In this document: positions 59,301 to 64,000 of the stretch, piece after piece
Layout: each line of letters starts with the position of its first letter
Position numbering within the stretch: the stretch's first letter is position 1
Made by a program: the position numbers
Assembly (NCBI RefSeq): GCF_011045215.1
Contig: NZ_CP049201.1
Length of the DNA: 64,000 nt
From: Escherichia coli
Lineage (GTDB): Bacteria; Pseudomonadota; Gammaproteobacteria; Enterobacterales; Enterobacteriaceae
Direction: 5' to 3' (one strand)

Positions 59301-62300
59301 ATCACACCACGCAATATGTTTATGAGCATCGCATGGGCGTCAAACCTGGCGGCAATATTGCACTGCTGGCGTGTGCAGGTCCGATGGGCATTGGCGCTAT
59401 CGATTACGCCATTAACGGCGGCATACAACCGTCGCGGGTGGTGGTGGTCGATATCGACGACAAACGTCTGGCGCAGGTACAGAAGCTGCTGCCGGTGGAA
59501 CTGGCGGCCAGTAAAGGCATTGAGCTGGTGTATGTGAATACCAAAGGGATGAGCGATCCTGTCCAGATGCTGCGGGCGCTGACAGGAGATGCCGGGTTCG
59601 ATGACATTTTTGTTTATGCGGCGGTGCCTGCTGTCGTTGAGATGGCTGATGAATTACTGGCGGAAGATGGCTGTCTGAACTTCTTTGCCGGGCCGACGGA
59701 TAAAAACTTCAAAGTGCCGTTTAATTTCTACAACGTTCATTACAACAGCACGCACGTCGTCGGTACATCCGGCGGTTCAACGGACGACATGAAAGAGGCA
59801 ATTGCCCTTAGCGCCACTGGGCAGTTACAGCCGTCGTTTATGGTGACCCATATCGGTGGCCTGGATGCGGTGCCAGAAACCGTGCTCAATCTGCCGGATA
59901 TCCCTGGCGGTAAAAAACTCATTTATAACGGCGTGACCATGCCGCTCACTGCCATTGCCGATTTTGCCGAAAAAGGCAAAACCGAACCGCTGTTTAAAGA
60001 GTTGGCGCGGCTGGTTGAGGAAACGCACGGCATCTGGAATGAACAGGCCGAGAAATATCTGCTGGCACAATTTGGCGTTGATATCGGGGAGGCCGCGCAA
60101 TGATGTCCCTGGCGTGGCCATTATTTCGCGTTACGGAACAGGCAGCATTGGCTGCCTGGCCGCAAACCGGATGTGGCGACAAAAATAAAATTGATGGCCT
60201 GGCGGTCACCGCGATGCGCCAGGCATTAAACGACGTCGCTTTTCGTGGACGAGTGGTTATCGGCGAAGGAGAAATTGACCATGCGCCGATGCTGTGGATT
60301 GGCGAAGAGGTGGGCAAAGGCGATGGGCCAGAAGTCGATATCGCGGTTGATCCCATTGAAGGCACGCGGATGGTGGCGATGGGGCAGAGCAATGCGCTGG
60401 CGGTCATGGCTTTCGCCCCTCGAGATAGCCTGTTACATGCGCCTGATATGTATATGAAAAAGCTGGTTGTTAATCGACTGGCTGCCGGGGCGATTGATCT
60501 GTCTTTGCCTCTGGCGGACAACTTGCGTAACGTGGCGCGGGCGTTAGGTAAACCGCTGGACAAGCTGCGCATGGTTACGCTGGATAAACCGCGTCTGAGT
60601 GCCGCGATTGAGGAAGCAACACAGCTGGGGGTGAAAGTTTTTGCCCTGCCGGATGGCGATGTCGCCGCCAGCGTGCTGACCTGCTGGCAGGATAATCCTT
60701 ACGACGTGATGTACACCATCGGCGGCGCGCCGGAAGGCGTGATTTCTGCCTGTGCAGTCAAAGCGTTAGGCGGAGATATGCAGGCGGAATTAATCGATTT
60801 TTGTCAGGCTAAAGGGGATTACACGGAGAATCGGCAGATTGCAGAGCAGGAACGCAAGCGTTGCAAGGCAATGGGCGTTGACGTTAACCGTGTGTACTCG
60901 CTCGACGAACTGGTGAGGGGGAACGATATCCTCTTTAGCGCTACGGGCGTCACGGGCGGCGAGCTGGTGAACGGTATCCAACAGACGGCGAATGGGGTGC
61001 GGACGCAGACATTACTGATCGGCGGCGCGGACCAAACGTGTAATATAATAGACTCCCTGCATTGATGGTGATCTATCGGAAGACCAATGGCGACGCTGAC
61101 AGAAGATGATGTGCTTGAGCAACTGGATGCACAGGACAATTTATTTTCATTTATGAAAACTGCGCATTCTATTTTGCTCCAGGGAATACGCCAGTTTCTG
61201 CCGTCGCTGTTTGTCGATAACGATGAAGAGATCGTGGAATATGCAGTGAAGCCGTTACTTGCCCAAAGCGGCCCGCTTGACGATATTGATGTTGCGCTGC
61301 GTTTGATTTATGCGCTGGGGAAAATGGATAAATGGCTGTACGCCGATATCACTCATTTTTCCCAGTTCTGGCATTACCTGAACGAACAGGATGAAGCGCC
61401 CGGATTTGCCGATGACATGACCTGGGATTTTATCAGCAACGTCAATAGCATAACCCGCAATGCGATGCTCTATGACGCGTTAAAAGCGATGAAGTTCGCT
61501 GATTTCGCCGTCTGGTCAGAGGCGCGTTTTAGCGGGATGGTCAAAACGGCGCTGACGCTGGCAGTAACGACCACCTTAAAGGAATTAACGCCGTGAAAAT
61601 TGAATTAACGGTGAATGGGCTGAACGTGCAAGCGCAGTACCATGAGGAAGAGATAAAACGCGTGCATAAACCGTTGCTGCGCATGTTGGCGGCCTTACAG
61701 ACGGTAAATCCGCAGCGGCGAACCGTGGTTTTTCTTTGCGCTCCGCCGGGAACGGGAAAATCGACCCTGACTACCTTCTGGGAATATCTCGCGCAACAAG
61801 ACCCCGAACTGCCCGCTATCCAGACGCTCCCGATGGATGGTTTTCACCATTACAATAGCTGGCTGGATGCGCATCAGCTACGCCCGTACAAAGGCGCGCC
61901 GCAGACATTTGATGTGGCAAAACTGGCAGAAAAATTGCGCCAGGCAGTGCAGGGCGACTGTACGTGGCCGCAGTACGATCGACAAAAACATGATCCGGTA
62001 GAAGATGCGTTGCATGTTACCGCACCAATAATCATCGTCGAAGGAAACTGGCTATTGCTGGATGACGAGAAGTGGCGCCAGCTTGCGCAATTTTGTGATT
62101 TCTCGATCTTTATTAACGCGCCCGCAGCGGCGTTGCGGGAGCGTCTGGTGGGGCGCAAGCTGGCGGGAGGGTTATCGCTGGCAGACGCAGAAGCTTTTTA
62201 TGACCGTACCGACGGGCCGAATGTTCGCCGGGTGCTGGAAGAGAGTCTGCCTGCAAATTTGACCTTAATGATGACCGCTACGGGTGAATATCGTCTGGTG

Positions 62301-64000
62301 GATTAATGTTCCTGATTAGACCATCTTCCAGTCGCACCACACGAGAGAAATGACGCCGGGTAAATGCGGCGTCATGACTGATTGCTACGACGCTCGTGCC
62401 TCGCTGGCGGCACTTCTCCAGCCAGCTTTCAAACACGCTCAACCAATTTTCGTCAAAATCCCGACTCGGCTCGTCCAGCAGCAATAGTGGCGGAGAGAGT
62501 GCTTCCAGGCAGGCGACGGCGACCATCCGTCGCTGCGCACTATGCAGATCCAACGGGTGCGCGCTGGCAGTGTCTGCTAACTGACAACATTGCAGGGCAG
62601 CATGGGTACGTTGAGTGATTTCATCCGCCGGGCATTTTTGCAGTTTCAAACCAAATGCGATCTCGTCAGCGACGGTGCTGTGAAAAAGTTGGTTTTCCGC
62701 TTCCTGAAACAGTACGCCAATCTTTGCCGCGCGCTGGCGGTTTTTCAGGTTTTTCATCGCCTGTTGTTGCCGCATAACCGTACCGGCTGTGGGCGTAAGA
62801 AGACCTGCCATTACTCGTAACAGCGTCGATTTCCCTGCGCCATTGTCACCGGTCAGCGCCAACCATTCACCTTGTTTGAGTTGCAGAGAAATGTCGCAAA
62901 GACAATCCGTTGCCGCGCCAGGCCAGCGATAAGATATCTGATTTAACGTTAACATAGTGGCTGGAGCGCTCCGTTTTGCAATTGCCACGCTTGCTGGCAG
63001 TAGTTCAGGAAAGGTGTGCGATGACGTTCAAAAAGAATAATCAGCGAACCACGTTCAAACGCCCAGTGTTGTAATCGCTGCAACAGCATTTCGCTGGCCT
63101 GCGGCGTCAGGCGGCTAAAGGCTTCATCAAGAATTAATAGCTTTGGCTGCATCGCGATGGCGCAGGCGATGACCACGCGCTGTGTCTCTCCACCGGAGAG
63201 TGTTGCTGGGTGACGATGGCGCAACGGCTGGCACTCGGTCAGAGTCAGGGCGGCATCAATCCGCGCCATAATCTCTGCTTCAGCAAGACACAGATTTTCT
63301 GGCCCAAAGGCAACTTCTTCTTCCACGCTAAAGGTACAGCCGGAGAGCTGCAAATAGGGCGATTGCTGGACGAGCTGGATGGTGGCGGATTGTTCATTAA
63401 GCGGGAGATGCCCAATGGGCGTACCGAGGAGCGTCCCCGTGCCTGTTATCTCTCCTGGCAGAAAGTCCGGATACCAGCCCGCCATCAGCTGTGCCAGCGT
63501 ACTTTTGCCACTGCCGTTGTCACCAAAGATGGCGACCATCCCCGGTTTGACATAGTGAAAGTTATAACAGAACGGAGGATGCGTTGAGTGTGTCGGGCAA
63601 TAACGGAACTGTTCTAACGTAACCATATCCACGCTCCGAATTCTGTCAGCATCAGCAAGATCATGGTGTAACGCGCTACGCGTTGTAGGGTGCTATCGGC
63701 TGGTGCCCACAACGTTGTTCGTCGGTTGTGGATCCGAAATGCCCGCATATCCAGCGCCGCACCGCGGACAGCAAGATCGTTTAGCGCATTGTGTGTTAGC
63801 GGAATAATTAACGCGGGCATCGCACGTAAACGCTGATACCAGCCCTCATCCAGCGGCACGCCGCGGGCACGCTGCGCTTCATGAATAATCGCTAATTGCC
63901 GTTTTAACTGCTCAACGACCAATAACGGACCGGCAAACAGATAAGCGACGCCTGGCGGCAGGCGAGAAGCAAACAGAGCGCGGATAAAACATTGCACGGG

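Follow-up and report, generated by a model that had tools for sequence, protein, structure and literature searches.

What are the transporter genes at the right-hand end of a 64,000-nucleotide stretch of E. coli DNA (contig NZ_CP049201.1 of assembly GCF_011045215.1; hereafter the window), and how did they come to lie beside yggC? A sequence-only reading had placed two ABC ATPase genes and a partial CbiQ/EcfT-like membrane component after yggC on the opposite strand and, from the K-12 order of yggC followed by epd-pgk-fbaA, had suggested that they would be a strain-specific insertion. The open reading frames (ORFs) it described at 62278–64000 were confirmed, and for genes past the window end we used RefSeq-annotated coordinates (locus L001). 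The features are as follows.

61593..62306, plus strand: yggC, an ORF encoding a P-loop protein of the nucleoside/nucleotide kinase family (NCBIfam NF006742, 523 bits)
62278..62306, no strand: convergent overlap of the coding ends of yggC and ecfA2, 29 bp
62278..62955, minus strand: ecfA2, 225 aa, from the RefSeq start (PF00005, 94.9 bits; RefSeq CDS L001 9001-9678)
62949..63626, minus strand: ecfA1, 225 aa (PF00005, 77.5 bits; RefSeq CDS L001 9672-10349)
63614..64000, minus strand: 3' part of ecfT, an ORF cut by the window end (RefSeq CDS L001 10337-11044)
L001 11045-11623, just past the window end: ecfS, the S component

The longest ORF extends to 62988 for ecfA2, for which 62955 is the RefSeq start, and to 63632 for ecfA1; the portion of ecfT in the window covers the C-terminal 129 of 235 codons. 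Past the window end, as read in the two complete genomes closest to this one, the operon goes on with ecfS, a PPC/DUF296 gene and then the divergent epd, giving the order PPC(DUF296)-ecfS-ecfT-ecfA1-ecfA2, transcribed divergently from epd, with ecfA2 as the last gene. The overlaps of ecfA1 with ecfA2 (7 bp) and with ecfT (13 bp) are consistent with translational coupling of these genes. The RefSeq annotation shows no gene for a solute-binding protein in the operon. On the other side, the left border of the polymorphic segment is yggC, which closes the cmtBA-yggP-yggF-fumE-yggC cluster.

The gene order given for K-12 was seen in MG1655, where yggC and epd are separated by only 284 bp, and a direct comparison of this junction bore out that the ECF/ABC-type genes are absent there; the K-12 spacer holds no ECF gene remnants. 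In all, 132 bp in K-12 replace 3267 bp. The K-12 state is not a clean deletion, as the 3' part of its yggC is a deeply divergent allele: divergence starts inside yggC at about nucleotide 480, and the last ~230 bp of the K-12 gene are 57–63% identical to every other allele compared, whereas the 3' end of the window type shares 96% identity with that of E. albertii. We looked for a donor of the K-12 sequence, but a protein search with its C-terminal 84 aa returned 12 short fragments and no informative taxon, and none of the species sampled was closer than ~72% at the DNA level.

The segment is not strain-specific: among 5426 complete E. coli genomes, 3328 carry it and another 2035 have the K-12-type junction. 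In 3319 E. coli genomes 80% or more of the operon is present, and each of the 59 full-length rows sampled named all five products. The same five genes lie beside epd, in divergent orientation, in E. albertii, E. whittamii, Salmonella, Citrobacter, Klebsiella, Kluyvera, Atlantibacter and others, and the order pgk-epd/PPC-S-T-A1-A2/(yggC cluster)/tkt is kept in about 35 enterobacterial species. Identity of the ECF proteins to those of E. coli tracks the species (92–99% in E. albertii, 75–91% in Salmonella), and the GC content of the operon (0.51–0.59) is like that of its flanks. We saw none of the hallmarks of a horizontal islet at the locus, be it an integrase, transposase or other mobility gene, flanking repeats or a tRNA, deviant composition, or a patchy distribution off the species tree.

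These observations bear directly on whether a horizontally acquired islet entered between yggC and epd in the lineage of this strain. Although the segment is missing from K-12 and the other genomes with its junction, and the borders on the epd side are sharp, such an acquisition is very improbable given the family-wide synteny, the agreement of protein identities with the species tree, and a window-type yggC 3' end that is common to other Escherichia species and leaves the K-12 end as the odd one out. Because of this synteny, the species-like divergence, the normal GC content and the lack of repeats and mobility genes, we regard the K-12 state as derived. Extending the locus rightwards upheld the initial proposal in two respects, that these are ECF/ABC-type transporter genes and that K-12 lacks them at this position, and reversed the polarity of the change, as the operon is ancestral at this locus in Enterobacteriaceae. 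We conclude that the window very probably ends in part of an ancestral five-gene ECF importer operon, a segment that the K-12 lineage lost by haplotype replacement. In some 37% of E. coli, K-12 included, the interval from mid-yggC to about 220 bp upstream of epd would have been swapped for a short and very divergent haplotype.

All five operon genes are under purifying selection, with dN/dS values of 0.05–0.20 against Salmonella, Citrobacter, Klebsiella and Atlantibacter. A value of 0.76 for ecfA1 in E. albertii was discarded, as it stems from an in-frame stop codon within that gene in strain NBRC 107761. The genes next to the operon vary among Proteus, Morganella, Aeromonas, Budvicia and Limnobaculum and gave no functional hint.

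We then assigned the operon products to families. The best NCBIfam families of the two ATPases are ECF_ATPase_1 and ECF_ATPase_2, with scores far under the equivalog cut-offs (147 vs 330 and 121 vs 315). The product of ecfA2 has the motifs Walker A GDNGAGKST, Walker B LLLLDEP and H-loop ISHD with a degenerate signature, LHSAQ for LSGGQ, and that of ecfA1 has Walker A GDNGSGKST, Walker B LLILDEA and the canonical signature LSGGE; in a comparison of motifs across 16 taxa, the H-loop His of ecfA1 varied among orthologues. From these motifs, one ATP site appears to be consensus, formed by the Walker A, Walker B and H-loop of EcfA2 with the LSGGE of EcfA1, and the other appears degenerate, pairing the LHSAQ of EcfA2 with the non-conserved H-loop of EcfA1. 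This asymmetry is conserved as far from E. coli as Proteus and Aeromonas. Both 225-aa proteins align to residues ~5–232 of EcfA chains of 278–300 aa, and both are missing the C-terminal dimerisation extension of EcfA (~50 aa; canonical proteins are ~270–290 aa). Orthologues in Proteus, Morganella and Budvicia are longer (252–280 aa) and, unlike the E. coli ATPases, those of Proteus and Morganella have the C-terminal ~50 residues.

The shortened ATPases of Enterobacteriaceae and the degenerate site, together with the loss of the operon in 37% of genomes and the E. albertii stop codon, might suggest a decaying and dispensable remnant that persists by inertia and does nothing useful in E. coli. 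We consider this unlikely. The five dN/dS values were obtained over family-level divergence, the operon is full-length in the 3319 genomes noted above, and the degenerate site is itself conserved and coherent (the A2 signature pairs with the H-loop of A1), a pattern also seen in asymmetric ABC proteins that are functional.

The third transporter gene, only partly inside the window, is named 'energy-coupling factor transporter transmembrane component T' by RefSeq (235 aa). Its full-length product scored 21.4 bits against Pfam CbiQ, below the cut-off of 25, with no NCBIfam match; the in-window fragment had no Pfam match, and carries two Arg-Gly motifs resembling coupling helices, QRARGV and AVRGAA. 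Homologues of the S component are followed by a clear CbiQ gene or occur as S-EcfT fusion proteins.

The S component itself scored 33.2 bits against PF12822 (cut-off 30.7), and Pfam and NCBIfam scans returned only PF12822, NF045596 and weak FolT-family matches. Its AlphaFold model (pLDDT 94.2) was used for a Foldseek search, in which the best 16 PDB matches were all ECF S components (FolT, RibU, ThiT, PanT and BioY; probability 0.89–1.0). The protein is at most 20% identical to any solved S component. NF045596, the 'CD3073 family putative ECF transporter S component', was the best and essentially the only S-family match of the E. coli protein, and was also the best S-family match for all 78 homologues aligned. 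The scores against this uncharacterised family (134.9 bits for E. coli, 100–140 for the homologues) all fall under its cut-off of 180, for which reason we place the E. coli protein and its homologues in a sister clade of NF045596.

This assignment bears on what the operon may import. PMC11481890 cites a PhD thesis (2018) in which the Salmonella operon is 'suggested to import Co2+', and describes the operon as seemingly activated anaerobically. A cobalt (or nickel) importer regulated by the PPC protein (STM3071 in Salmonella) would also agree with old 'CbiO/CbiQ cobalt transport' annotations, with the weak CbiQ and cbiO-subfamily similarity, and with a PPC His triad that could bind metal. CbiQ and CbiO are, however, the T and A families common to every ECF transporter, so these names are uninformative on substrate. 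The S component falls in PF12822 and not with CbiM or NikM: CbiM, CbiN and NikM gave no Pfam or NCBIfam match, the significant fold-search matches included no metal-type S component and in the PDB were solely of the vitamin type, and the RefSeq annotation shows no small CbiN-like gene in the operon. Nor did we find a cobalamin or other riboswitch upstream, as no Rfam family matched at E <= 1 in L001 8000-13000. Because the S component is of the vitamin type and not CbiM, the cobalt suggestions do not fit, and we hold a metal importer to be improbable.

Gene neighbourhoods point elsewhere. We dereplicated the surroundings of S homologues into 34 groups, 28 of them with readable upstream DNA. 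A PPC gene lies directly upstream of S in 10 of the 28, and an IU_nuc_hydro nucleoside hydrolase gene takes that position in 7–9 groups (7 among the 28); both occur together in 3/28 and neither in 11/28. PfkB kinases accompany 4 of the 34 groups, one of which has both PPC and hydrolase, and metagenomic clusters combine 2–3 hydrolase paralogues with a PfkB kinase. The E. coli operon has no hydrolase gene, and the hydrolase-linked homologues are only 39–45% identical to E. coli S, a level at which S components can differ in substrate. Our best guess from this context is that the substrate may be a nucleoside or another N-ribosyl compound.

The PPC protein (98.7 bits against PF03479) has three invariant histidines, H85, H87 and H101, plus invariant E, D and R residues. 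It can be likened to the alpha-acetolactate decarboxylase/PTD012 fold with its Zn-binding His triad, at 13–20% identity and as a single, half-size domain. Bacterial PPC proteins are not known to have any catalytic activity, and bacterial PPC/DUF296 proteins have been crystallised five times without an assigned function. In the arrangement that we propose, the protein would bind metal and serve in an accessory or processing role, not as a DNA-binding regulator. One possible if rather doubtful extension is that PPC and the ECF transporter form a new functional pair for the salvage or use of nucleoside-like (N-ribosyl) compounds, in which a small His-triad metalloprotein would bind or process what is imported and partly replace the IU-type hydrolases that take its position in related operons. 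If so, K-12 would be without an uptake capability present in most wild E. coli and Salmonella.

Another candidate is a queuosine/preQ1 salvage transporter of the QrtT type. C. difficile QrtT is a PF12822 S component, is encoded in the operon queK(IU_nuc_hydro)-qrtT-queL, and takes up preQ1, queuine and queuosine (PMC11130926, PMC11477304). The hydrolase-then-S arrangement is the same as in distant homologues of E. coli S. This candidate is nevertheless quite unlikely: no queK, queL or tgt gene is present at the E. coli locus, no preQ1 riboswitch was found, and the multiple hydrolase paralogues with PfkB in metagenomic clusters look catabolic rather than suited to micronutrient salvage. Moreover, E. 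coli makes queuosine de novo, and YhhQ already serves preQ0/preQ1.

The orthologous operon of Salmonella enterica, STM3071-STM3075, matches that of E. coli in all five genes and their order and likewise diverges from epd, and its crystallised PPC protein (PDB 2HX0, 2NMU) is 82–83% identical to that of E. coli. In S. enterica subsp. enterica the operon adjoins tktA directly, whereas in E. coli the cmt-yggC cluster lies between. For the intragenic sigma-54 site described within Salmonella STM3072 (PMC3844500), the corresponding E. coli sequence no longer has the GG of its -24 element. With the reported anaerobic induction in mind, we also searched the PPC-epd intergenic region (L001 12078-12448) for an FNR box with at most two mismatches and found none, and scans for promoters and terminators gave counts equal to the shuffled expectation. 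The same intergenic region contains a palindrome, GTGGAAT-N2-ATTCCAC, at L001 12205-12220.

The operon is, in sum, ordinary and conserved, and neither its annotation nor its mention in the literature is new: PMC11481890 treats the Salmonella genes as a putative ECF operon of five genes, one that pathogenic E. coli conserve. Our literature searches on CD3073, on yggC with ECF transporters, on DUF296 with nucleosides and on HtsT/QrtT returned nothing specific to it. ECF systems are rare in Enterobacteriaceae. As a genome feature the segment is of little importance, but it illustrates that K-12 is a reduced reference, against which a lost ancestral operon can pass for an insertion in other strains. 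It also brings to notice an orphan ECF transporter common to E. coli, Salmonella, Citrobacter and Proteus, with a possible nucleoside or riboside lead and an inherited "cobalt" label that is now open to question, and it gives bacterial PPC/DUF296 proteins their first genomic context, as the first gene of, or adjoining, an ECF importer, sometimes with nucleoside hydrolases and a PfkB kinase.

We infer that the operon encodes a dedicated, group-I-like ECF-type ABC transporter that would work in the import direction. As in ECF transporters of solved structure, its small six-helix S component would bind substrate on the outward-facing side of the membrane and topple against the EcfT scaffold, and the EcfA1/EcfA2 heterodimer would drive the transport cycle. 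A precedent for ECF nucleoside import is the C. difficile queK-qrtT-queL operon (PMC11477304), which distant homologues of E. coli S resemble in gene arrangement; the E. coli operon differs from it in having no hydrolase, QueL or preQ1 riboswitch. Group I ECF transporters (BioMNY, CbiMNQO and QrtTUVW) likewise keep S, T and two A genes in one operon, and share with the E. coli genes the overlapping gene ends, the absence of a solute-binding protein gene and the six-helix S fold. Unlike them, the E. coli system has 225-aa ATPases without the C-terminal domain, one degenerate ATP site, a PPC-domain gene at the head of the operon, and an S component that stands at 20% identity or less to those of solved structure.

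The three ORFs that follow yggC in the window are consecutive, overlapping and all on the minus strand of 62278-64000:

61593-62306, plus strand: yggC (NCBIfam NF006742, 523 bits)
62278-62955, minus strand: ABC ATPase, ecfA2 (PF00005, 94.9 bits)
62949-63626, minus strand: ABC ATPase, ecfA1 (PF00005, 77.5 bits)
63614 (stop-proximal end), continuing past the window end, minus strand: partial ecfT ORF

The start codon of ecfA2 is the RefSeq choice, and this ORF converges on yggC, sharing 29 bp with it. E. coli PapM-32-1 matches 62278-64000 with 100% identity. There, RefSeq names the product of the third ORF 'energy-coupling factor transporter transmembrane component T' (235 aa); the next two genes encode an 'ECF transporter S component' (192 aa) and a 'PPC domain-containing DNA-binding protein' (143 aa), and a 371-bp divergent spacer then separates the PPC gene from epd-pgk-fbaA. 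Isolate AB66, the nearest complete genome over the last 25 kb at just 99.0% identity, has the same arrangement. The ORFs, the PF00005 matches and these two annotations bear out the sequence-only reading, which had placed ECF/ABC transporter genes after yggC on the opposite strand. Across window positions 39001-64000 (25 kb), none of the complete E. coli genomes compared (5426) exceeds 99.0% identity, the nearest being AB66 and O55:H7/O157:H7 strains; the window strain, or its allele mosaic, is therefore not represented in that collection. As a feature the operon is already known and ordinary, given its RefSeq annotation, the presence of the PPC protein in the PDB and a passage in PMC11481890 describing it as conserved in pathogenic E. 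coli. The more modest points for which we found no description are a nucleoside-hydrolase/PPC/PfkB neighborhood, the minimal ATPases and their predicted asymmetric ATP sites.

The same reading had proposed a strain-specific insertion relative to K-12. Comparison with the MG1655 locus confirmed that K-12 has no transporter genes between yggC and epd: yggC (b2928) is followed after 284 bp by epd (b2927). However, 3328 of the 5426 complete E. coli genomes carry the ECF segment, each in a single copy, and in 3319 at least 80% of the whole 3.1-kb operon is covered; carriers include O157:H7, O55:H7, O111:H8, O178:H19 and O25b:H4-ST131 strains and UMN026. The K-12-type junction occurs in 2035 genomes, BL21 among them. 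A search limited to one genome for each species gave 55 loci with the S gene. Using tblastn with E. coli protein queries, we found the order pgk-epd / PPC-S-T-A1-A2 kept in E. albertii and E. whittamii, in many Citrobacter, Salmonella enterica and the Klebsiella oxytoca group, and in Kluyvera, Atlantibacter, Silvania, Superficieibacter, Phytobacter, Pseudescherichia and Enterobacter, with either the yggC cluster or tkt directly coming next. The five-gene unit lies elsewhere in the genome in Proteus, Morganella, Providencia, Budvicia, Limnobaculum and one Aeromonas. Identities of the operon proteins fall with taxonomic distance, GC content is similar to that of the flanks, and the locus has no flanking repeats and no annotated mobility genes. 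dN/dS for all five genes is 0.05-0.20 against Salmonella, Citrobacter, Klebsiella and Atlantibacter (0.03-0.07 for the comparison genes epd and pgk). Together, these observations leave an insertion unsupported and argue that the operon is ancestral at the yggC-epd locus and its absence from K-12 derived. The sequence-only reading was thus right that K-12 lacks the ECF genes, but an ancestral operon was lost rather than a new one gained.

How K-12 came to lack the operon is visible at its two junctions. In a locus-to-locus BLAST comparison, 132 bp of K-12 replace 3267 bp of the PapM-32-1 locus (L001 8961-12227). On the epd side, homology restarts ~220 bp before the start codon of epd; on the other side the break falls within yggC. 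Up to ~nt 480, K-12 yggC matches the PapM allele at 97-100%. Over its last ~230 nt, identity is just 57-63% with the alleles of the window, PapM, E. albertii and E. whittamii, and 65-72%, in partial alignments, with those of Salmonella diarizonae, Citrobacter and Superficieibacter. The window-type 3' end shares 96% identity with E. albertii and 90% with E. whittamii. Because other Escherichia share a 3' end from which the K-12 tail diverges, we infer that K-12 carries a replacement haplotype, with a foreign or very old yggC tail and a short spacer in place of the ECF genes. No ECF remnants are detectable in it, and a simple recent deletion would not describe this state.

Several other features of the region emerged. 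yggC (61593-62306) is unusually polymorphic and mosaic: over nt 1-480 the window allele, which is also that of AB66, shares only 84-92% identity with the PapM/K-12 allele, far beyond normal within-species divergence, and the K-12 gene itself joins a PapM-type 5' part to its 57-63%-identical 3' end. In the E. albertii NBRC 107761 locus, the ecfA1 orthologue (L006 7275-7952) has an in-frame stop (…VVIA*AIAM…), so the operon is probably inactive there. In Buttiauxella sp. B2 (L043 1-8605), the cmt-yggP-yggF-fumE-yggC cluster sits upstream of PPC, not in the ecfA2-tkt interval; enterobacterial evolution has therefore changed the relative arrangement of these two modules. Past the window end, within L001 12203-12220, ECF-specific DNA ~130 bp upstream of the PPC start contains a perfect GTGGAAT-N2-ATTCCAC palindrome, with a further GTGGAATAAA copy nearby (L001 12287-12299); as a pair they are a candidate operator serving the divergent PPC/epd promoters. 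Next to these sites, in the DNA that K-12 also has, is a Cra-box-like TGAAACGCTTCAGC. Elsewhere, speA and speB flank a 243-aa ORF (51496-52227, plus strand) whose product has a lipoprotein-like signal (…LLAGCSS…); K-12 presumably has no gene there, and the AB66 counterpart (L066 16995-17726) is annotated 'hypothetical protein'. Between tkt and cmtB, PapM-32-1 has a gene for a 'prohibitin family protein' (L001 2389-3297) that is missing from the window and K-12.

The S component scores above the Pfam ECF_trnsprt threshold, and its model, built from an alignment of 78 homologues, is a six-helix bundle (pLDDT 94.2) whose top sixteen PDB matches are exclusively ECF S components (folate, riboflavin, thiamine, pantothenate, biotin), at 13-20% sequence identity. 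EcfT gives a weak, sub-threshold CbiQ match and has two Arg-Gly motifs at the expected coupling-helix positions; relatives have clear CbiQ domains after, or fused to, the S gene. Both ATPases are closest to ECF ATPases and minimal (225 aa), without the ~50-residue C-terminal extension of crystallised EcfA/EcfA', which Proteus and Morganella orthologues retain. Their ATP-site motifs show an asymmetry conserved across 16 taxa: in EcfA2, Walker A, Walker B and the H-loop (ISHD) are retained and LH[SATV][AG]Q replaces LSGGQ, while EcfA1 keeps LSGGE and has a variable H-loop histidine (H, N, D or T). Since each ATP site combines the Walker motifs of one ABC subunit with the signature of the other, this asymmetry predicts one competent and one degenerate site. 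By analogy with solved ECF transporters, the ATPase dimer would drive toppling of the S component against EcfT. In a set of fusion proteins (P0211, P0218, P0230; also P0155 and P0164), S homologues form N-terminal membrane domains of histidine kinases (DUF4118-PAS-HisKA-HATPase, with or without a receiver domain) or are joined to EcfT, suggesting reuse of the S fold as a sensor module.

The PPC protein is 82-83% identical to the Salmonella protein of 2HX0 and 2NMU, structures that are labeled 'putative DNA-binding protein'. That label reflects nothing more than the company of AT-hooks that PPC domains keep in plants; the E. coli protein lacks an AT-hook, a pattern that would better fit a small metal-dependent protein, with a binding or catalytic role, than a transcription factor.

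On what the system transports, there is one published suggestion. PMC11481890 gives Co2+ import for the Salmonella operon and, citing a 2018 thesis on STM3071, apparent anaerobic activation. The sequence does not favor cobalt, as the S component is not of CbiM/NikM type by Pfam, NCBIfam or fold search, and the operon has neither CbiN nor a riboswitch. We therefore compiled S-homologue neighborhoods from representative-library matches, eight contig look-ups and 80 metagenomic loci, and clustered the neighboring ORFs; upstream DNA could be read for 28 S groups, dereplicated at 80% identity. In 10 of these, the gene directly upstream of S is PPC; they comprise every group with S 47-99% identical to E. 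coli S bar two (L062 and L090, one with a PPC gene detected by Pfam only). An IU-type nucleoside hydrolase (NH; PF01156, 344 bits) takes that position in 7/28, with S 39-45% identical to E. coli S, and in two further short-flank groups; 11/28 have neither. Three groups combine PPC and hydrolase in one cluster, examples being PPC>NH>S>T>A>A, and PfkB>NH>NH>S>T>A>A with a convergent PPC after it; PfkB-family kinases occur in 4 of all 34 groups. Nucleoside hydrolases are rare genes, so their adjacency to S is unlikely to be chance.

Extending this to E. coli bridges sequences that are 55-60% divergent, and hydrolase genes are absent from the E. coli operon. Its convergent neighbor yggC belongs to a nucleoside/nucleotide kinase family; we give this little weight because the operon occurs without yggC in many genera. 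From the hydrolase neighborhoods and a precedent in C. difficile, our best guess, with roughly one chance in three of being right, is that the substrate would be a nucleoside or related riboside. In that precedent, as PMC11130926 and PMC11477304 describe it, queK, an IU_nuc_hydro member, is followed by qrtT, whose product belongs to the PF12822 S components and takes up preQ1, queuine and queuosine; the same hydrolase-then-S order recurs in distant homologues of the E. coli S component.
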